NCBI GenBank assembly: GCA_017654855.1
Contig: CM030333.1
Coordinates: 1,178,001 to 1,242,000, forward strand
Reading direction: 5' to 3'
Length of the DNA stretch: 64,000 bases
From: Podospora anserina
Taxonomy: Eukaryota
In this document: piece after piece, positions 1 to 62,800 of the stretch
Layout of the letters: each line of letters starts with the position of its first letter
How positions within the stretch are numbered: position 1 is the stretch's first letter
Made by a program: the position numbers and the translations under genes
Notes under the pieces: model-generated
What the model was told of the DNA's origin: nothing
Seen by the model: only the letters and a program-made list of their open reading frames with translations
Database searches by the model: none

Positions 1-972
1 TAAATCCTTTCAGCTCAAGATTTTGTCTCGTCGTACCTGGAATAACAAAAAGCCGTCACACTTCAACACTGTAAACTAATTGTAGAAGTTCTCTCATCAT
101 GGAAACGCCTGTAACTTAATAACATCAGGTAATCCCATATTACAACTCCTCACGTCACGAAACATCTATATATAAGTTCTGTATTATAATCGTTTGCATG
201 GGACAACAAAACACTACAAGTGAAAGAATATATAGAGCCCCAAAAGCAAAAGTCATGATTCAACAAAGAAAGGGCAGTGACGAATATTCAGCGCCAACTT
301 CTCGACAAGACCCAAGTTGTGACTCGACTTTGTAGTCGAAGAGCACTTATAGGAATTAAACAACCAAGCCGTAAAGTCAAACAGAGACTCAGAACTTATA
401 ACTCAACTCGGTAGCTAAAGAACATTCTCAAGAAATATAAACAGCCAACCAAGTCATAAAAGTCCAGCCTCAAAACTCACAGAAAGCTCACCCCCCATCT
501 TCTAACGAGGGGCTACGAAAACCTCGAAAGGTTTCAACGAAGAAGGATCGAACTCGGGGCCTATCGGTTGCAAAACCCCGGCGGTAGGCGGTGGACGGTA
601 AACAGCAGCTCTGACATCCTTACCATTTGACCTGACCACACAGGTGTGTGGCGCCCTGGTAAGCATTCCAGAGCTGCTGTTGGAAAGGGGCATGTTTTGA
701 CCTAATATATAAGCCATCGTTTGCTCCTTCCTTGAAGGTGTGCACAAAGTCGAGTCGTGAGGTCAAGTCGCACAGCAACAGAACCACACCAGACCCATCT
801 CGTCTCACAAAGCTGGAGTCAACCAGTTGATCAAATTACTTTAAATACACAGCAGCAAAGCTGAACAACCCATCATACCCAATATACACAACCAACATAC
901 CCCCCTCAATGCTATCCCAAATCAAAAGCCCACCAACGCCTTGCTCAAATCAACCCTCCCCCAATCTCAACA

Positions 973-2331
973 TTAATCCCCACTAACCCTAGCATGCCTA
1001 AAATACTTCATCCCCACCCACGCAACCACCACCCAAACCCAGGCCATCACACAACTAAGTATTATCAACGCAGGATAATACCCCACAATCGGCAACGTCG
1101 GATCATCCTCCAACTCAGGCGGCGCATACGGTGTAGTCCCCACATCCCACGCCCAGCTCCAAACCCCCAAGCAGCTCCCCATCCCAATCACAAACACCGT
1201 CCACGTCACAATCAACACCACCCACCCCCACCACTCCGTCTCGGAATAGTCCCAGTCTGAGTCTGGTTGTGGCAGGGGTGTCGTTGATAGCCCTGCCAGA
1301 GAGGTGAGTGCCAGCGGGGACTTCGCTCTCTGAACCGTGCCGCGACGGCGTTGGATTGATGGGAGGATTGATGAGCCTGAGGTGGATGATCCGAGGCCCA
1401 ACGGTCGGGGAGGGCTGTGGGGAGAATGGGGGGGGTTGAGAAAGTAAGATTCTGACCCCGAGGCGGAGGAGACAGAGGCTCTTTCCGGGCGGAGGAGGTT
1501 AACGGAGGAGGAGGTGGACGAGAGGTTCGATGTTGATGAACCCGGCCCGGTGGGGACGGCCATGTGGAGGGCGTCTTCATCGTCTGTGGTGCTGTAGCTT
1601 ATACTTGGGCTTCTTGAGCCGGTGATGCTATTTCTTGAGCTGGGCGTGTTGGCATTTATAGGGGCCAATGCGGCAGTGGGGGTTGCGTCTGGATCGGACG
1701 GTTGGGAACCACTTCGGCTGGCATATCCGTCCATGCTGGGTCGGGGTGTGAGGTCTGATATTCCCAGACCGTACGGTGTAGATGTATTAATAGAATTCTT
1801 CAAGATACCGCTATTATTCTGGAGGTGTAATGTGTTTGATATAACCGAGGTCGGCGCGGTGCCGGCTGTGACTTGGATTGGTGTCCCGTTCGGTTCGCCA
1901 TAGACGTTCAATTTTGTGTCGATTGTTAGTCCACGATCCCGCTTTTCTCTTTGAGCACCCCGCCCCAACAGGGCAACCTTTCGCAACGATCCTCTACGTC
2001 GTCGTGTTTTTAGCGGTTGCGGCTGCTGGGTTTGATGTTGGATAATGTGAGGCAACGGCGGGGGCGCAGCGTTGGGCGCACCCGCGTAGCGTGGATGAGT
2101 GTCGGCCGGTATGGAGGTGAAAGAGGGCGTGGGAGGAAATGTTGTGATCTCGGTCTCGTTGGTGTTGCGGCGGGATCGTGGGCGGTGTTCGCCCGAGTTT
2201 CGCATAAAAGGTAGTTTCGAAAGCAAGCCTCCAGCGCCAGAGCTGCTGCGCTTGCGACCGGGCGCTGGACGAGTTGGGACGGAAGATGGCGTATCGGCGC
2301 CGGCGCCTGTGACCGATGACGACTCGTCCAT
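973..2331 (-). CDS. PIG-Y/Eri1-domain membrane protein (putative GPI-GlcNAc transferase subunit Y) with a long disordered N-terminus
   Basis: Intronless ORF. First ATG is at 2331 (the ORF track starts at TTG 2337). The C-terminus has two hydrophobic segments (WWGWVVLIVTWTVFVIGMG; YYPALIILSCVMAWVWVVVAW) ending in WVGMKYFRH, which resembles the PIG-Y terminal WxGxKxFRH motif. Confidence 0.7.
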   Translation of the reverse strand: MDESSSVTGAGADTPSSVPTRPAPGRKRSSSGAGGLLSKLPFMRNSGEHRPRSRRNTNETEITTFPPTPSFTSIPADTHPRYAGAPNAAPPPLPHIIQHQTQQPQPLKTRRRRGSLRKVALLGRGAQREKRDRGLTIDTKLNVYGEPNGTPIQVTAGTAPTSVISNTLHLQNNSGILKNSINTSTPYGLGISDLTPRPSMDGYASRSGSQPSDPDATPTAALAPINANTPSSRNSITGSRSPSISYSTTDDEDALHMAVPTGPGSSTSNLSSTSSSVNLLRPERASVSSASGSESYFLNPPHSPHSPPRPLGLGSSTSGSSILPSIQRRRGTVQRAKSPLALTSLAGLSTTPLPQPDSDWDYSETEWWGWVVLIVTWTVFVIGMGSCLGVWSWAWDVGTTPYAPPELEDDPTLPIVGYYPALIILSCVMAWVWVVVAWVGMKYFRHARVSGD

Positions 2332-3066
2332 GGCCAATGGGAGATATCGGGGACCTGAATATGGCGTAGGAGAACAGACAGTTTCCGAACAAGGTTCTGG
2401 CTAGGAGGAAGATGTCTGTGTCGCGGCGGCCACAGGGCGTCAATGGCGTGTTACCCCTCGAAATAATAGGGCACGTCCAAACAGGGTCTCAGATCCATCT
2501 GTCAGGGCAAGCCGGTGGGGTGGACTGGCGTTGAAACTGCTGTTTTGGGACCAGGAACAAGACATGGACATTCACATCTCGAGATGGAATTTGATGGATT
2601 GAGGCTCAACAACGCGAGAAATGTAACATTTCCAACCCCCTGCAAACGTTAGGTGACAGGCCACCCGGCGCCATCCCGGCAGGCAACGTACCCCTGAATT
2701 TGATGGTTTACGACCCACCCGCCTCCCCCAGGTCCCTCCATTGGCCAACACTGAAATCAATGATGGAGGCTATGAGACAACGGAATGAGACAATATGGGA
2801 AGATAGGTATTGCAGATTCTACATGTTCTCTTGCATAGCGCTATCTCCAAATCCAGTCAAAGATATCAAAGACGCAAAGACGTCCACAGCCCAGCGCATC
2901 TGGCCTTCCCCAGTAGGAACCTCCCGCAAAACGGTGTAACCCCACGCTAGGCAAAAAGGGGAAGGCGTCCAGGAACACCCTGGAGATCGGACACGCCCAG
3001 CTCCGCCCGCCTCGAACACTCCTCGACGACGAACGAACCACCTGCTGCCCACAGCGTGCGCTGTCG

Positions 3067-34302: not shown

Positions 34303-37300
34303 TCAATTCTTTTCTTCGGGGTGGTGTGTTTTGGTGTGGAGGTGGTGGGTTTTTTTTCGTGGACTGATCCAGAACGTTGGGGTAAGGTACCTAGGTAGGT
34401 ATGGCTTGGGAGAAGAAGAAATGGTAGGTACCAAATGTCTCAGATACGTGTATGTGTGTGTGTGTGTGTGTGAAAAAAGAAACATACATGATAAATTATC
34501 ATGATATCAACAGTAAGGTAACATGCACACTAATTATCGAATCGGTTGAATCGGACCCGGGGATCTGACGATCTGCTGTATCTCTCTCTCCCCCGCCTTT
34601 TTGGGAGCTCCCAACAATCGAGGAAAGGTATGCTTGTTGCTTTTTTTTTTTTTTTTTTGGTGGATGGGGAGGGGGGCGAGCTGAGTATCAAGATTGGGGA
34701 AGGGGAGGTAGGCGGGCAGGCGGGCTAGTATCGTACAGTATGCACAGCTGCTGCTGGAGGGGGATGCAAGAGGGAGAGAAAGCGGAAGTTCGGGAGAGAC
34801 GGAGTTGGAAATGCCGAGTGAGGTGGGGGGTTTGTTTGGTGGTGAGAGAGAGATGTGTGTGTGTGTCTCTTTTACTCAGGACATCGGTTGTAAGACAAAA
34901 AGACGCAGGAGAAAAGAAAAAAGCTAACTGCTGCATGGACAGGTGCTCATCTGCGTGTCTTTGCGTCTTTAGCGTGGCAAGGCGTCCTTCAAGAGGCAGG
35001 ATCAGGACGGTGACTGGAGGGGGTGTCGAGAGATGTTCACTGTCATGTCGAGTACGTACAGTACTTTGAGTTCCAAACCCATTGTCGTCAGACCAGTTGG
35101 GAGGGCCAAGGTTTAGGGTAGATTGTACAGACTGTATGAGTTGCAGCAACTAGCCGTTGTTCAAGTTGTCAGCTGCTCGCTTTTTTTATTGCTTTTGAGA
35201 GAATTATGAGGAGACAGCAAGACATGGGGTGTGGGCACTGGGATGAGGTGTGATGAGAGGAGATTGGAGAGAGAGCGGGTAAGGGGTAGTCAGAAAAAGA
35301 TCCGTCGGTCGATTTTATTCCCTCCCTCCCTCCCTTCCTTCCGCTGTCCGTTTCTTGTCTATGGGTCAACGGGGGACGGATAGGACCCGTTGCCTTCTTT
35401 TCTCCGCTACCGCTACCGCATCCGTTCCCGTAACCGTAGCGTACCCACTTCATCCATTGTGCTGGGTCTGTTCTTGCTCTATGGGATTTGGAAACGTGAG
35501 ATGGGATTCATCTCATGTGCATGTTAGGATCGAGGAGCCTCTTACTGTCGAAGAAAAAGAATTACGAGATCTATGTGAAAAGAAGCAAACAGCTGCGAGG
35601 TATCACTTCTCCGGCTAAATCGTGCCGTCTGTTTACCTTGTTGCTCTGAGAGACAATGCGGCCATTTCTGCAGCGTCCTCTGAGACGAGATTGTCTTCAC
35701 CTTGATACATGTCCGCCTTGCCCGGTCTCCCAGAATAGCCACACCGACTCACCGACTACTATACACAAGCACAGATCAGCAAGCAATATATTCCAGCTTC
35801 ACTTTTTCCTGATCCGACAACAGCCAAGGCCATGATCCGAGCTGGCTCTGAAACAAAGTCACCGGCAAACAAAGCAATATTTCACCGCGCTGGCTGGCCC
35901 ATCCATGTCGAGGCAGGAAGCCTTGTGTGACCCGAGAGAATAGAACACCTCCAAGCCTCGGGCCGGCAAGTTGCATCTCGCTGATCGGAACGGCCGGCAT
36001 TATTCCTTCTTTTTTCTGTTCTTTCGCTCTTTTGTTCAGCCAATCAGCTTCAAAGGATTGTTTCCCCTCAAAAAGGATCACACAACAGATCAAAAGAAGA
36101 AATGAGCATATGCAAACCAGGGGAAAGAAAGGGGGCTGGGAGGGGAACCGTCCATTCACAAACGGTGATATACCGACATGATGCATGCGTAGTTTATATA
36201 CATACATAACAGCTGAACAAGGAGGGTATGTTGTGGATGAAGAGCTTCGTACTGTAAAAGTAGGTTGACGTATATTATATTTTAAACTATGCTTCAAAAG
36301 ATACTTGATAGGCTTGTATAGATAGTTGGAGGGTCTTGAAAAGATAAACAATAGGCCTTGAAAGATAGTTGAGAGGCCTATTCGACGTGGAGGGGTGAGG
36401 GCGAGAGTGAGTGGTTGAAATGACAAGACAGAAGCCTCCATCTGTTCGTCGGTAAGCAGGCTTGGACTGAGGCAAGCTGCAAGAATGTAGAGACGCAGAG
36501 ATGGCATAGTGCGAATAAATGAGCCCACCAGCAGCCATCATCAAAGTTGCTCACCACCGAAAGAAGCAGGTCAAAGATTAGGTATGGTCGGGTATGTCCG
36601 TCCTTTCACAGGTAGTACAGCACAGAGTGATAGCTGCCATGCCAAAGTCCACGATACTTGACGCGAGAGAGCCAATACCGAAACAGGAAATCCGTCTCAT
36701 GTCTATCCTCAGATGCAAAAGCAATTGGGCATTGATGCGAGTTACATACCTGCATGCATACCAAGAGAGCAGACTCAAAGAATGATGAACTGCCGCTTGC
36801 TGCTGCAAAGTCCCAAAGCCATCAAGGTCCTCACTTTGCAGCGCCTTTGCAGCTGATGACCTCTCGGTGTTACTCATTCCCAGTTTACTTGTGATACCTA
36901 CCTGAACCCTGTGCCACCTCTTCCCCAGATTATCTGAGCAACTTATCTATGTGCTCGTACACAGGGTCAATCTCAAGCAGTATGTCCAGCCTGCTGACTT
37001 TGTTTGTTTGGAAACATTACCCCTGAGCAGACCCACCATTCCCCCCTGTCGTCTCCTCGCCTCACTTTACCACAATGCTTCCAACACGCCTTGTTCAACA
37101 CCACCCATCCATCCTATGATGTGGGGAAAATATTGAAAGCCACAAGGAGCTTCCCTGCCCATCAATCTAAAAACATCCAAATCTATCAACTCACTGCAAG
37201 TACCCGCTGCTTGATCATACCCCCATCCTTGCTTGTGTGCCCTCCCCAGGCCAGTCAAGCTTCACGCCCCTCCTCATTGACCGCTCCTTTCTTCCTGCAA

Positions 37301-41930: not shown

Positions 41931-44900
41931 GGCAACGACAACGGACATCCGACTGCAACTAACTGACCACCCACTACACCAACAAAGTAACTACAAGTAA
42001 AGGGCTCTCTCATAAGATGTATCAAACCATAACCCCCGTCCAGTAACAACCGCAGAGAGGAAAGCACGCCACATCTCCGCAGATTTGGTCTTTTTGGAGA
42101 AAGGTTGAGAAAGGAAATTGTGCAATTTGACAGCTCACATTCCGCAAAACCCCGTGCCGCGCCGAACAACACGCAGAGAGAAAGCCGAGCAAAGCATGTT
42201 ACCTACTGCCGTGTGTGTGTGACCTCCTCCCCCTTTTTTAATCTTTTTTTTCTCTTTCTTTTTCCGAAGACAGAACGGAAGTAACGTTTTGTGTGAGTTT
42301 CTAAATATATGTCCCAAAGACATCCTGGTAGCTATGCACTCCTGGACAGGACAAGACTACCTATACTGCAGCCTGGCTTTTGTCTGATGCTTTCAAGGTT
42401 CCATACAACAGACGGCATACCCCGACTGAGTAGTGCACTTAATGTGAGGCGCTGCTTTGCCGAGTGCGAAGACCATGCAACAACACAGCAAAGCACGAGA
42501 GAGAGGCGGTGCCACTCCGGGATCGAAGATCTCAACCACATCTCGACCAAAAAAAACCCAAGCATCAATAATACCTACTGGCAACATACTTTTCGGGCCG
42601 TCTTCCCTATGGCGGTCACTGGCGGTGAATCGAAACCCCTAGCACCCTCACTTACTCCCCCTCCTTCCCCCTGATAATAATGAGCCGACTTTTCCGTTCC
42701 CCCACAATTGAAGCCAAGTAGCCGTGTTATTCACCAGCTCCTCCCCTACCCATCCCAACGTACGTCGTATAACCCCCCATCAGTTGCCTCACCTCTGAAT
42801 GCGAGATGTCAGTATCATAAATATTTGTCACTTTCTTGTTGTTTTGTCGCATAAGCCACCATCACTGCCCTGCAGGCCTTGTCCGTTAAAGATGGTCATA
42901 TGCATTGTCTCAACAGACCTCTCATTGTCTTTTCAGTACCGGTGTTTCTCTTCAGCTGCTCAACTTTTGTCACGTATCACTTTTCTTCGGTCTCCCCCAA
43001 AGCAGATACCAAAACATCAAACGGCAACTTCCACCCAGAGCCTTGTCCAGTAGGTAGTCACTTACTGTTGGTACCTGTGTACTATCAAACAACTGACCCT
43101 CGACGACGACTCGGCCGAAGCTGCAGTCTGTTAAAAGCGTGACACGTTACACCCACTCATTCTTCCCCGTACCCCCAAATCTCGTAGTCATCAACCCCTA
43201 CACATGACCTTCCCACACACGCAAGCCAAAAATCCCAGCCAGGCTCGGAGGAATCCAACTTGTCGTCTTATCCTTCCTGTACAGCAGGCCCTTAGTGGGT
43301 GACCCTACCTACCGCGTTTAGCCTCCTCCAAAAAGTAGGGCGAACAAAGATGGATGGATGGTTGGGCAAGTGTCAGATAGATCAACCAAAATCTCAGATC
43401 TCAACCCCATCTCCCCCTCAAGTGGTTGGTGCAAATGTGTGTGGGCGCACAACTCACTCCCCTTCTCCTTCGCCCCCCGGTTCCTTCACTGTCTCAACAA
43501 CCTCACGAACACAACCACCTTTCCTCAACGAACAGGTATGGTATTACAAACTCCCTTCGTTCCTGATTTTCTTTTTTTGCCAAACAACAAGAACAAAAAC
43601 CCCTTGCCAGTCAAACCCGCTGCTGCCAGGCGCAATCCCCAGGTCAGTTATCGGTAAACAACCCCCTGCTGTGCATAAAATCCAACTACGTCATACCTTC
43701 CCTCCCCAGGGCATCCCCACTCACACCCCTCCGAGCAGGCGGGTTCCGGGTTCGGGTTCTTTCCCTCACTTCCTTTTTTTTTTTTTTTTTGGGGGTGGGC
43801 CGAATGTGGAACCAACAACCACCACATTAAAAAAAAATTGGAAGGATTCTAGAAAACCCTTGGAAGAAAAGGCTGGAAAGGTAAAATAAATAAAATAATA
43901 AAAATAATAAAAAAATGATAAAAAATAAAAACCAACTAACCAACCCTGCTTCAACCCTGCCTGCCCTTGACCTTCCCTTGGCGGGGTAAAACCAAACCAA
44001 AAACCGTGAGGGGAAAGGTGTTTCGCGGGGTTGTTTATATGTGTTAGGTAATAATCCAACATTCAATATCAAGCTACACTGGCGGAAGACATGACAGGAG
44101 AAAAGATTCTTGTTTCTCCTCGGCGGCGGCGGTGGTGGTGGTGGTGGTAAGGGTAGTTAGTTGTGTCTGGTGGTTGGGACAAGCCGCCCGCTGCGGCTTG
44201 AAAGACCTCACCATTATGACAGAAATATATGCAAACAAACGCCCTGTAGCAATGGTGGTCATGATCAAAAAGAAAATCCTCGGCAATGTAGTCTGGTCTG
44301 GTGCAATGTATACCACATGTCCCCGTCTTCAAGTCCAGTACCTCAACCCTGCCTGCGTACACTTACCATCGTGGTATCTTCATGATCTCTTGTCATGGCA
44401 GTCAAAGCATCTCCGCACTGAATTCTTCATTTGGGTCTCTGCATCTTTCACTGTCACTCTCGAGAAAAGGTCAGGTAGTTTTATCACCCTCCCCCCGCCC
44501 CCCCGGCAAACCACGCTCACAAACCCCAGAACATCTCACACATCCTGACTGCTGCTGCAGAAATAATATGCAGCAGCAGCAGGGCCAAAGCGCCACCACC
44601 ACCACCACCGTTGGGGGGTTGGGGGAGCAAAAGAGAGAAATTGATGGCATCATGGCCCATCGTCCCCAAAATCTGCAACCCTGCCATCCGAATCATCTCC
44701 TGCAAACAAGGGTGTTGGATTAATACCGCTCTCCCTCTTTCCCCCGTTGATGGATGTATATCAAGCTTAGTGGTCTTCCTTCCTCATCAGCAAAAAAAGA
44801 ACCCTTTCTGGTGGTGGTGGTGACCCCCAACATTTCTCCTGCTACTACAACACCATCAATTTCCCGGAGACCACCTTATGATAAGAAACAAAAAGTTCTC

Positions 44901-58508: not shown

Positions 58509-59882
58509 TCACCACTGACCCTCCAAAGCATCATTCTTCTTCTCAGCTTTCTCCTCGGTCTTCTCCTCGCCCCAACCATCAACACCCTTGTCCTCCTCAT
58601 CATCCTTCTTGTTACCGAAGGTCTTCTTGGCCTGGGCAGACACAGTATACACAGTCATACCCGCCGACCCCATCTTTGTATCCACCATACCAGCCGTAAA
58701 CTGGCCCATAAAGCGGGCGTAGTCTTCCGACTTGCGGATCTTGCACTTGCTACCCTCGGACTCAGCGTGCTGGGCCAGTGCTGCGTTTGTGTCGAACCAT
58801 TTGGAACACACTGGGCACTGCACTTGGAAACCAGTGGTCGGATGTGTTAGAATGTGGTTTCGGAGACCATTGCTGGTGGGGAACGCCTTGCTAAACAAAG
58901 CGTCACTACATAAGCTTATTAAATTGGGCCGTTTTGACGAGACATACATGCACCTGTCCCTCGGACACCCGTACTTTCTGGTATACTGGTTATAGTACTG
59001 TTTGGGGTCCCAATTGGGGTTGCGAGGATCGTGTCTGTCATAGACCGGTCTCTTCTCAGGCTCTCGCCAATCTTGAGCTTGCGCGGGGGCGCGACGCGCA
59101 GGAGCAACAGCGGGGGTGGTGGCAGGACCAGTGTAGCTCGGGAAGAGCACCTTAATGTCCCCAGCCTCACTTGACTGTTCCGGATGGTCGCTCCCCGGCC
59201 CAGTCAGCAAATCGCCCTTCTGACCCAGCGACATCATCTGGAAGGTGACGGGATCCGGCTTGTGGCTGCTGTCAACCAGAGGACGGAGAGAGGAGAGGGT
59301 GTCGCCCGCGGTCTCGTCCTCCGTTGTGGAAAGATACTGGGTGTAATGGGCAGGACCCTTGTTACTGCCACTCCAAGCGGTGAAAGTGGCAACCTTGTTC
59401 TCATGTTGACCAGGCACCATCTGAAGCTGGCGGGCAAATCTCAAGGCTTTCTCTCGCTCCTCGTGGAATCTCTCATTGGAGATTGTGTTGCATCGGTTCT
59501 TTTCGATGTGATCCACGAAGCCGCTCATGCGAACAAGGGTGGCTTTGCAACCGGGGCAAACCATTTTCTGGTCAATCTGATGGAACTGTATCTAGGACTT
59601 AGCTAAGAGTAACGCGGGCAGTCACCAGAGTCCTTACCTGCTTGTAGTGCATCTCGGCAGCACCCTCGGTGCGGAACATCATCATACATTTCTCGCTGTT
59701 GAGAGAAAGAGGTTAGGGACAAACGGGGAAAACAAGAAGCCATAGACAAACCAGAAGTAGTGTCTGTTTCCCTTCGCATACTCCGTCTTCCAGTGATTGA
59801 TCATCGTCTGCTTGTCATCGAACGAAGCCTTGCAGGTTTGGCAGATAAACTTCGACTCCTCTGGCTTCTCCATCTCGTCCAT
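58509..59882 (-). CDS. Multi-C2H2 zinc-finger protein of unknown function; exons 59882-59752, 59695-59638, 59585-58948, 58890-58509
   Basis: Splicing restores the fingers CQTC..HW, CEKC..HYKQFH, CPGC..HIEKNRC, CPRDRC..HILTH and CPVC..HAESEGSKC. Donors are GTTTGT, GTAAGG and GTATGT. Confidence 0.8.
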
Positions 59883-62800
59883 GGTGTTAGATGACAACAC
59901 CGTGACCGTATAGGTAGAGGAGGAGGCAGAGGAGGAGGAGGAGGATCAGGAGGATGAGGAGGAGGATGATGATGATGATGGAGAGCATAACGAACATGTG
60001 TGGAAGAGAAGGAAGAGTATAAAGAATAAGTTTGTTACGCAATTCCGACCTCAAAAAAGTTGAGACGAGGAAGAGGAAGAAGAGTTCAGTTGGGATGCAA
60101 GTTTCCAGCAGCAGGTAACCTAAATTTCAAAAGACAAAGGGCAAACAGAGTTTGGCTGACCGTGCGATGATTCGACTTCAACTGGCAGGTACATCCTTTT
60201 CACCGGTAGGCCGACGTTTTCCATTTTCAGCCGGTCGGCAATAGTGGACAAATACCTATGAGGAAAGAACGATGATGCCAGTAAAGGCTCCCGCTCCTTC
60301 TCAAAGACCGGAAGCATCAGATATGGCAATTGCGGGCAGACGGGGCTGTACCTTATGATGTCTGGGATCTTGAGTTCTACGAGATCATGGGGAAGATCGG
60401 TCTGATATCATGTGTATATGGAGGCTACTGTACAGGTTCTGTTCTGGCAGTATGCGTAGAGGTCTAATGCCTACCAGGTAGATGAGGTGAGTAAATGTGG
60501 ACAGACTTTCATGATTAATGATCGTATCTGTTGTTGTGTTTGCCCAGCCACTTCAAGCAACCGCAAGGTAAAACAACCATGACAATAACAATAAGTTCGG
60601 CAAACATACAAATCTTCACATTTGACATCAGAGAAGATACAACCGGTCACCTACCTAGGTATGTTTGATCCATCAAGCTGCACACTCCCAACATCTCATC
60701 ACAAGATGCTACTTCCTTCATCTTCACACTCTTCGCTGGCGATATCGCCCCCCATATCCAGATCCAAGCCTCAACCATCATGCCCGAACAATAGCATCCT
60801 CCTCCTCAAAACCAGACATTAAACAAGGCTGTATACCTAGGCCTGTGGATGTGGCTATTCGCAGTCAAGCCATGCAGCATATTTCACCCCTAACCCAGCA
60901 CCTGTGCCCGATACAAACAAGGGGTGTTGTTACTTTAGATCCCAAAACCGATCAAAGATCCACAGATCGACGGATCACCCGCCCTACTCCCTCCTCATCT
61001 CCCTGATCTTCAGAAAGCCTTGCTTCACCCCCCAGCATTGTTGTCGCCAGACATGAAGCAATGCACGATGTGTTGTTTTATTCCTCAAGCTCAGGTGAGC
61101 TGACAGTGGCAAAATCCACACCCACGCCCAAGATCCCTCCCCTCGTGAGCTCCTCTATACGGCAATTGATGGACTACATCACCCCCCTACAGTTCAACCC
61201 CCCTCCCCCCCCCACATATTCTTTGTCACAGTAGGTAGCTTCATGTAAGATTCCTCATCGAAAAAGAAAAATAAGCCTGAAAACACAGTTTAAGGTGCAA
61301 GTAAGGAGAAGTAAGTAAAACACCAGCATTCGAACCACGTATCTCAACTAGTTATCGCCACTTTGGCTCTCATCAATCCCTTTCCCACACCTATGCAATA
61401 TAGGTACATATTCGACCGGTCTATACGTAACATACATTCCCACCACAACCAAAACCCACAATCCTACATACGTCAGATCAATACCCTCCTAACGCAAGCC
61501 CATTACATACGCAGGATCCGGCTCGCCTAACCCAATCCACAAACCCCCCCATGTTATTCCTCATCCTGCCCCTAAAAATGCGCCTTGGCTTGATATTCCC
61601 TTCCAGTCACACATCTGATCCCAGGAAGTGAGTGGTTGTTGTCTCAATGCAATGCACCATGCAATGTGCGTACAATCATACCTACAGTCAGCCAGCCAGC
61701 CAGCCAGCCAGCCAGCTTGCGGCTGGCCAACCAATCCCAGCCTTTTGTTCCAGGAATCCTTCCATTGTGCAGGAAATTGTCCAAAGACATGTCTTCATGT
61801 TCGTTGGAATAAGCCCAAGGAGGGAACCAATATCGGTTCAGAGATCTCTTTCATGAGGTTTATGAGGGAACAATGACGCGGCTCTGCTGTCAGTTTCAGC
61901 AGCCTACTGGAGTTGCTTGCCCAGAAGCAGAAAGATGTCGGGCGGTGTAGCCTCCTCGTATTTACTCTCAGAGCTAAAAAAGCTGATCAAATATCAACAT
62001 GAGAGATCAAAACTTCGGCGAGCGGATACAGTGATATTTTGAAGACATCCTGAGCTCCACCACCCGGGATGTATCACCCAGTTTGTGTCAAGTCCATTGA
62101 GGCTTAAGATGAAAGTGCTGCTGCTGTGGTTCTCTGCGAGGTGATATGGGGCTGGAATCCCGCCGAGCGCTGACCAGCTAATGTAGGAACGGCTGCCCGT
62201 AATCCAGTAATACGAATGCTATTGACAACATGCATCCACGCCCGGCATAAGTAACCAAACAAAAGCCAATGACCAAGAAAAGGCATATCATGAACATTAA
62301 TACCATGGATCAAACAGAAGATCGGCCGTAAATGAACACCGAGATACAAGCTCTAGACCGAAGCACTGATCAGAGGTTTGAGGACAAGGCGAGCTTCATT
62401 GCAACCTATCGCCGGATCAACAGACAGCCTCAAACGCTAAGTCGATGTGGACGATAACCTCTGCGATGAAACGAGAAGATCACCTCGATGCACCCACAAG
62501 CCATGGGCCAAGAGCATGGTTTGAGCCACGAGAACCGGGTGTGGCAATCTTTCCGAAGAACCAGGGAGACGGATCAGCAGATCGCATTTCGTGCAGAAAC
62601 TAAAAGAGACATCCGGGAGATTCTGCCGCCGGGCGGCACCTGACGATGATACACAATTACCGCAGTGTCGTTTGTCGGTTGAGCTACTGCGAAGCTGATA
62701 GGGCTGCAGACAATCCGTGACACTGGGCCCCGTGAATGAGAGCAAGGGTGACATAGCGCCTGGTATGATGGCGCTGAAATGGGCACCCTCCGACCCGGAA

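Follow-up and report, generated by a model that had tools for sequence, protein, structure and literature searches.

A highly foldable spacer segment beside a PIG-Y-domain gene of Podospora anserina, possibly a decayed inverted-repeat element within a spliced non-coding transcript

Background

The catalogue of non-coding RNAs (ncRNAs) in filamentous fungi is very small. For Podospora anserina, the 2008 genome paper gives, in the sections concerned, 28 annotated ncRNA genes or elements obtained via homology search, and also mentions 'repetitive elements of unknown origin' and small segmental duplications (PMC2441463). Among the described systems that resemble the locus reported here are the MITEs (miniature inverted-repeat transposable elements) of this fungus, which are shorter than 500 bp and escape both repeat-induced point mutation (RIP) and silencing by trimethylation of histone H3 at lysine 9 (H3K9me3) (PMC8105982, in its account of MITEs), and the novel transcriptionally active regions (nTARs), for which PMC9801653 gives 1732 intergenic examples, 55.8% of them spliced and 32% shorter than 500 bp. 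We have analysed a stretch of 64,000 nucleotides of P. anserina (assembly GCA_017654855.1, contig CM030333.1, positions 1,178,001 to 1,242,000 of the forward strand), referred to here as the window and consisting of fungal nuclear DNA. The subject is a segment of 468 bp (positions 303-770 of the window) in the spacer downstream of a gene with a PIG-Y domain. An initial annotation, prepared from the letters alone, had proposed a structured RNA of about 470 nt here on the minus strand. The segment is real, unusually foldable non-coding DNA, beyond what chance would give. We tentatively favour the reading that it is a decayed MITE-like or dispersed inverted-repeat element lying within a spliced non-coding transcript convergent to the PIG-Y gene.

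Results

Folding of the segment compared with chance

Folded on the minus strand, positions 303-770 give a minimum free energy (MFE) of -180 kcal/mol (z -7.67), and none of 100 dinucleotide shuffles was as stable. The corresponding values for the plus strand are -135.4 kcal/mol and z -2.14. By this measure the minus strand is strongly non-random. With block-wise shuffles (78-nt blocks, local composition kept), z was -6.78 for the minus strand versus -2.39 for the plus strand.

The whole window was then scanned in non-overlapping windows of 200 nt on both strands, which amounts to 640 strand-windows with 20 shuffles each. The mean z was 0.0 with a standard deviation of 1.22 and a 1% quantile of -3.7, and the lowest value of all belonged to 601-800 on the minus strand, where z was -6.6 (-5.5 when 60 shuffles were used). 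Behind it, at z -5.1 to -4.7, come stretches of microsatellite or purine-rich simple sequence and of coding DNA, which are unrelated to the 303-770 element. It had initially been argued that such a density of nested helices is unlikely in ordinary intergenic DNA, and both the shuffles and the scan agree that it is statistically exceptional.

Perfect inverted repeats of at least 13 nt with a gap of at most 500 nt occur at three places in the 64 kb: 321/744, 601/669 and one simple-sequence cluster. In ten shuffled versions of the window, such repeats numbered 0-3 (mean 0.8).

Some other positions recorded in these scans can be described briefly. The outliers at 34401-34600 (z -5.1) and 59801-60000 (z -4.7) are a (TG)n microsatellite and a GAG/GAT-rich simple sequence and not structured elements. 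In the cluster at 44130-44810, overlapping 13-nt inverted-repeat matches resemble simple sequence, and Tandem Repeats Finder reported no array there. A perfect 11-nt inverted repeat with TA-rich ends (171-181/390-400, 208 nt apart) overlaps the left part of the segment; by our estimate, several pairs of this kind are expected by chance per 64 kb.

Helices and predicted structure

Every helix named in the initial annotation was found in the sequence as complementarity at its own coordinates. The long-range inverted repeat 321-333/744-756 is complementary at 13 of 13 positions, and 601-625/657-681 (25 nt) is 88% complementary. The MFE structure of the minus strand contains 157 pairs, 29 of which are G-U. 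It is closed by 303-306/767-770, 309-313/760-764 and 321-333/744-756, and the stems of the main hairpin are 601-614/668-681, 619-625/657-663 and 635-641/646-652. Smaller stems are formed by 518-524/529-535, with a UUCG loop, and by 555-562/573-580, and a multibranch domain (462-596) carries the hairpins 552-582, 518-535, 490-513 and 473-489. One of the helices originally listed, 726-730/734-738, can pair in the sequence, yet the MFE structure forms 726-731/683-688 in its place. The structural features of the segment are as follows.

303-346, no strand: left arm of the long-range inverted repeat, with its core at 321-333, outer parts at 303-306 and 309-313, an inner part at 343-346, and CGAC/CGACT/AGTCGA motifs
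740-770, no strand: right arm of the long-range inverted repeat, with a perfect core at 744-756 and AGTCG three times (748, 753 and 766)
601-681, no strand: 81-nt three-tier hairpin of 14+2+7+3+7 bp on the minus strand; z -7.69 on the minus and -6.04 on the plus strand
683-731, minus strand: 49-nt hairpin with a TATA-like run in the loop; z -3.84 on the minus versus -0.78 on the plus strand
490-535, minus strand: two small hairpins, one with a 10-bp stem including four G-U pairs and one with a 7-bp stem and the UUCG loop; z -3.06 versus -0.58 on the plus strand
552-582, minus strand: weak hairpin with the stem 555-562/573-580; z -1.79 on the minus and +0.12 on the plus strand
405-455, minus strand: 51-nt hairpin; z -3.97 on the minus versus -1.41 on the plus strand
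353-404, minus strand: weak predicted hairpin, z -1.03, not better than shuffles

Transcript contigs and a plus-strand intron

Eighteen candidate RNA runs were considered. All were guessed to be RNA and none is recorded as such. The runs X1 to X12 carry 0.11-1.00 of 56 sampled words and the runs X19 to X24 carry 0.00. Contigs of four of them (X1, X4, X6 and X10, from four studies) were placed on positions 1-3000. These contigs show traits of RNA, namely an intron-sized GT-AG skip, adapter ends at 2564 and 2846 and, in X1, a hole at 2607-2825 between divergent genes. Contigs cover the segment in all four runs, and in X1 a single contig extends across 1-2607. Uncovered parts (for example 897-995 in X4, 984-1183 in X6 and most of the segment in X10) were not counted as evidence, and contig depth played no role in ranking the parts.

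The sole strand-resolved feature is found in a contig of X4, which joins 657 to 713: 55 nt with GT and AG at their ends are skipped, on the plus strand. A contig of X6, which comes from another study, begins exactly at 713 without a loose end, and this is a weak hint of the same junction. The 5' splice site of the intron falls within the middle stem of the 81-nt hairpin (619-625/657-663, 7 bp), on its 3' arm (657-663).

659-713, plus strand: 55-nt GT-AG intron (GTAAGC...CTAAT...AG), a typical short fungal intron whose branch site was read by eye, from the X4 contig
241-983, plus strand: span of the contigs that fit the spliced plus form (X4, 241-620 and 592-657 joined to 713-896; X6, 713-983), with unmapped ends

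Between 414 and 994 the plus strand has no open reading frame (ORF) that reaches 40 aa. Taken together with the GT-AG joint, this implies that part of the transcription yields a plus-strand RNA that is convergent to the PIG-Y gene, is spliced and lacks an ORF. With runs that are guessed to be RNA, the locus is thus transcribed, processed and without a credible ORF, as is a spliced non-coding transcript of the nTAR or long non-coding RNA (lncRNA) kind.

A diverged second copy and the inverted-repeat scaffold

One contig of X1, 201 nt in length, matches positions 606-640 with three differences and is unlike the window on both sides beyond. Its two 30-letter flanks were aligned by hand: 23 of 30 positions are identical to 567-596, and the level against 642-680 is similar. 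This second copy is about 80% identical to the window, with indels of about 9, 6 and 3 nt. In the hand alignment, one of these indels appears to take away one side of the main hairpin's apical stem. Judging from these alignments, the genome holds at least one old diverged copy of the core (at least 567-680) outside the window, which argues for a repeat rather than a unique RNA gene. In the remaining 63.5 kb of the window neither blastn nor nhmmer found a further copy, save for the match of the hairpin to itself. A metagenome scan with a pattern of 17 specified bases common to both copies returned at least 120 stretches; those fetched were all chance matches of 21-24 nt.

The arms 303-346 and 740-770 constitute imperfect terminal inverted repeats with a perfect core of 13 nt. 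The segment, at 468 bp, is small and has no coding capacity, its sole ORF being a near-neutral orphan (see below). The motif AGTCG, of which the 64 kb contain 43 occurrences, is present three times in a stretch of 23 nt at the right end and a single time at the left.

Strand bias of the fold

The initial annotation had favoured the minus strand, and the fold is indeed stronger there (z -7.67 versus -2.14). This does not apply equally to all parts. The 81-nt hairpin is nearly strand-symmetric, and the hairpins at 683-731, 490-535 and 405-455 are significant on the minus strand only, in a per-hairpin comparison that is biased in so far as the boundaries were drawn from the minus MFE structure. 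In the unbiased 200-nt scan the difference between strands is 4.03 at 401-600 and 2.80 at 601-800, and both values are in the top six of 320 windows. Outside the main hairpin, the plus strand at 301-650 is no more structured than shuffles (z +0.3 to +1.75). A G+T-rich skew of the minus strand continues from the PIG-Y coding region through the segment. Composition skew was considered as the cause of the asymmetry and rejected, since G+T-rich strands fold no better in general (93 skewed windows, mean z +0.11 versus -0.21). As the unbiased scan concurs and there is no general effect of G+T-rich strands, we regard the minus-strand bias as real.

An orphan reading frame and divergence in relatives

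The minus strand of the segment contains one ORF.

502-717, minus strand: orphan ORF of 71 codons plus stop (codons 717-505), or 81 codons from a TTG at 747; judged non-coding

The 71-codon ORF has no Pfam match at E <=10. Among 5.8 billion proteins it matches one cluster, at 93% identity, made up of ORFs called on assembled public reads, and a HMMER pass over 1.84 billion representatives gave this same cluster as the only true match. Two further phmmer hits were rejected as unrelated repeat proteins (with 8 and 21 matched stretches). The cluster includes the window's own sequence and two variants in related taxa, which differ at 6 and 5 of the 71 residues (7-8.5%). In comparison, 8-12 residues (1.8-2.7%) of the 452-aa PIG-Y protein differ between named P. 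anserina complex members, and 23 are different in Cercophora samala. In sister taxa, the 71-codon translation accumulates changes at 3-4 times the rate of the PIG-Y protein. Members of the complex are more than 98% identical in genic regions, according to the figure given in PMC10936905. The segment therefore changes at least as fast as the average DNA of these species, which argues against a protein gene and against strong sequence constraint. To judge from these variants, it drifts at a roughly neutral rate in sister taxa. With codons aligned by hand in the frame of the ORF, the second copy has roughly 3 synonymous-type for 10 replacement-type changes, a pattern that looks neutral.

Seven inferred substitutions were compared with the predicted folds. 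On the minus strand four of them are at unpaired positions, two leave a G-U where there was a G-C pair, and one disrupts a G-U pair within a 3-bp helix. The three main stems of the 81-nt hairpin are free of these substitutions. In a resampling test, significant for neither strand, one broken pair versus 1.99 expected was obtained for the minus strand (P 0.26), and two versus 3.53 expected for the plus strand (P 0.15).

Known RNA families and RNA polymerase III signals

Rfam 15, with its families of snRNAs, snoRNAs, RNase P/MRP, SRP and telomerase RNA, ribozymes and riboswitches, gave no match at gathering score over the 64 kb, in line with the initial view that the segment belongs to no known RNA family. 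When matches with E <=10 were admitted over positions 1-1500, eight sub-threshold matches appeared. Only mir-3167 lies in the segment, on both strands of the 81-nt hairpin (25.1 and 22.5 bits versus a gathering score of 86), and this reflects hairpin shape only. ARAGORN found no tRNA gene in 1-3000, and there is no tRNA-like fold. Inspected by eye, the segment shows neither an Sm site nor a box C/D, an H/ACA layout, an RNase P/MRP CR-I or the helix-8 arrangement of the signal recognition particle (SRP).

544-554, minus strand: B-box-like motif AGTTCGATCCT, at chance level

A B-box-like motif had also been pointed out inside the segment. It is present but occurs at chance level: the pattern RGTTCGANNCY has 2 matches in the 64 kb versus 1.83 expected. 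Upstream of it on the minus strand (556-640), no A box was found with two mismatches or fewer.

The neighbouring PIG-Y gene

973-2331, minus strand: ORF of the neighbouring PIG-Y gene, coding for a 452-aa protein with a C-terminal PIG-Y domain

The domain assignment comes from a match to Pfam PF15159 (E 2e-23) at residues 371-448 of the 454-aa reading that starts at a TTG (973..2337). The PIG-Y domain is coded by 994-1227. The foldable segment lies on the same strand as this gene and spans 203-670 nt beyond its stop codon. The nearest named relatives of the 452-aa protein are those of species in the P. anserina complex (97% identity), followed by proteins of Triangularia and Apiosordaria at 88-90% identity, and the fused PIG-Y architecture is retained throughout the Sordariomycetes. 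In P. pseudoanserina the gene is modelled at 498 aa, versus 452 aa in the remaining complex members (46 gap columns), probably because the gene models differ.

Several features of the contigs concern this gene. Just upstream of the sequence coding for the PIG-Y domain (994-1227), at 1166-1204, contigs break in three runs, each from a different study: X4 has contigs at 996-1204 and 1197-2564, X6 has a start at 1184 with an adapter loose end, and X10 starts at 1166. As a weak hint from contigs only, these breaks could mark an RNA end or an isoform boundary between the long N-terminal part and the PIG-Y part. The adapter loose ends of X4 at 2564 and 2846 and the hole of X1 at 2607-2825 suggest the start sites of a divergent pair, the PIG-Y-fusion gene (minus strand) and an ORF from 3067 (plus strand), with a shared spacer of about 280 nt. 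Just past the PIG-Y stop codon, an 8-mer at 984-991 (plus strand) is the complement of the TTAGGG telomere repeat unit. About two chance occurrences are estimated per 64 kb on both strands.

Discussion

A possible decayed MITE-like or dispersed inverted-repeat element

In the reading that we tentatively favour, the scaffold of the segment would consist of the 303-346/740-770 inverted repeat with its AGTCG/CGACT end motifs and of the 81-nt palindromic hairpin. It would represent the remains of a small non-autonomous inverted-repeat element (MITE-like, <500 bp) or of a dispersed repeat, which would since have drifted roughly neutrally and been included passively in weakly made transcripts. Any transcript through the locus, on either strand, is predicted to fold the 81-nt hairpin. 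On the plus strand the predicted hairpin would bury the 5' splice site (-2 to +5) in the 7-bp stem and could favour intron retention, and on either strand the hairpin would be a plausible Dicer substrate. A repeat is preferred to a unique RNA gene because of the nested inverted repeats, the end motifs, the length below 500 bp, the non-coding nature, the near-neutral drift, the second copy and the apparently passive transcription. The strand symmetry of the main hairpin (z -7.69 and -6.04) fits a palindrome at the DNA level.

A number of observations weigh against this interpretation. A relic palindrome does not predict strand asymmetry, and there are hairpins at z -3 to -4 on the minus strand only; the asymmetry at 401-600 and 601-800 is, moreover, not a general property of G+T-rich strands. 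No target-site duplication was seen by eye in the 2-9 nt flanking 303/770 and 321/756, where only a 2-nt GT is shared, which has a chance of 1 in 16. A single other copy was seen, about 130 nt of it, in a contig of X1, with none in the rest of the window. The differences between the copies are not RIP-like and include many transversions (hand alignment). Finally, the runs are guessed to be RNA and their contigs are strandless apart from the splice.

The minus-specific folding is not explained by a relic element, and two readings that place the segment in a minus-strand RNA therefore stay alive. One is an independent, lineage-specific structured ncRNA of about 470 nt that acts via its multi-helix fold and perhaps forms a small family with the second copy. 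In its favour are the shuffle results, with z -7.67 versus -2.14 overall, -6.78 versus -2.39 block-wise and first place among the 640 strand-windows, together with several minus-only hairpins and an asymmetry that is not a composition artefact. G-U pairs make up 29 of the 157 MFE pairs, only one of the seven inferred substitutions breaks a minus-strand pair, with none in the three main stems of the 81-nt hairpin, and, by eye, the minus strand shows a TATTTAAA-like run some 75 nt upstream of 770. However, such an RNA has no Rfam match and, by eye, no Sm, box C/D, H/ACA or RNase P/MRP motif; it has neither defined ends nor minus-strand read support, the only strand-resolved junction being on the plus strand; the sequence drifts near the neutral rate, with a substitution test that is not significant (1 versus 1.99, P 0.26); and the second copy appears, in the hand alignment, to have lost one arm of the apical stem. 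We consider this ncRNA unlikely. Its more specific form, a Podospora-lineage minus-strand RNA of about 470 nt (closing helix, 81-nt hairpin and four to five G-U-rich hairpins) with at least two diverged copies, both in transcript contigs, and with the plus transcript as its antisense, is slightly less probable again. Nothing shows the discrete 470-nt minus-strand RNA of the initial annotation, and the only strand-informative transcript is a plus-strand one with an intron that cuts through the main hairpin. Other observations that do not support it are that plus-strand folding of this hairpin is almost as strong, that the B box is no commoner than expected by chance, that change is near neutral and that there is a diverged second copy, which favours a repeat over a unique RNA gene. 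The other minus-strand reading makes the segment the distal structured part of a long 3' untranslated region (3' UTR), or the read-through tail, of the PIG-Y mRNA, where it would affect 3'-end formation, stability or the collision of convergent transcripts. The position on the same strand as the gene, beginning 203 nt after the stop codon, agrees with this, as do the single X1 contig across 1-2607, the minus-biased fold and the G+T skew that continues from the coding region. The 3' UTRs of P. anserina, however, have a median of 212-239 nt and a mean of about 300 nt in the values given by PMC9801653, whereas the structure is found at 203-670 nt after the stop codon. In addition, a contig that spans two features need not correspond to a single transcript, and there is no conservation support. 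We regard a structured 3' UTR as unlikely, although its probability is not negligible.

It is also conceivable that the functional unit is the plus-strand non-coding transcript, with the 81-nt hairpin as a cis element that hides the 5' splice site and tunes splicing or retention of the intron 659-713. The GT-AG joint 657/713, the stem 619-625/657-663 covering the splice site, the z of -6.04 on the plus strand and the unspliced form in the X1 contig 1-2607 are in its favour. Against it, the plus strand is unstructured outside the hairpin (z +0.3 to +1.75 at 301-650), a single spliced contig was seen and the transcript is one without known function. As an explanation of the whole segment this is improbable, but a splice-regulating hairpin would be compatible with the relic-element interpretation. 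The last candidate is a minus-strand gene for a small protein (71 aa, 717-505), with codons that form helices by chance. Its ORF is open and of equal length in three sequence variants, and in the hand alignment with the second copy the indels appear to have lengths divisible by three. Nevertheless, it has no Pfam match and a single 93%-identity cluster among 5.8 billion proteins, its residues change at 7-8.5% versus 1.8-2.7% in the neighbouring protein, and the changes relative to the second copy look neutral (about 3 synonymous-type to 10 replacement-type). A protein gene is very improbable.

If the relic-element interpretation is correct, the locus illustrates how, in fungal spacers, ncRNA screens based on folding can be dominated by a small relic made of inverted repeats, and why strand-resolved transcripts and copy number need checking before an RNA gene is called. 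The sole feature of possible biological weight is a predicted hairpin over a functioning 5' splice site in the convergent non-coding transcript, beside a gene for glycosylphosphatidylinositol (GPI)-anchor biosynthesis. This would be a simple testable case of structure-controlled splicing, or of hairpin-derived small RNAs, in a genetic model fungus. A minus-strand RNA, if true, would add a large lineage-specific class of structured RNA to those of filamentous fungi.

Comparison with known systems

The locus resembles a short interspersed element (SINE) derived from tRNA, or another RNA polymerase III gene, in its AGTTCGATCCT motif, which is similar to a B box. It differs in having no A box or tRNA-like fold, and the motif is at chance level.

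Precursors of microRNA-like RNAs (milRNAs) give rise to discrete Dicer- or Argonaute-dependent small RNAs of 19-25 nt from one hairpin arm. The locus is like the fungal milRNA precursors in having an imperfect 81-nt hairpin of about 33 pairs inside a non-coding transcript. It is known here by the shape of this hairpin only, and the mir-3167 match is likewise merely one of shape. Among the results listed by a literature search there was no paper on Podospora milRNAs.

With the nTARs of P. anserina, as they are presented in parts of PMC9801653, the locus shares a position in an unannotated spacer, the lack of an ORF and one canonical short intron. That class is defined by transcription alone, whereas the locus also bears the strongest predicted fold in 64 kb.

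In two respects the locus differs from fungal MITEs: no target-site duplication was found, and its multi-hairpin fold is biased to one strand. Since no such duplication was found and a single other copy was seen, we refer to it as MITE-like rather than as a MITE. The likenesses to the elements described in the relevant part of PMC8105982 are its size of about 470 bp, its imperfect terminal inverted repeats and end motifs, the lack of coding capacity, a diverged copy elsewhere, a position in the flank of a gene and its cover by transcript contigs.

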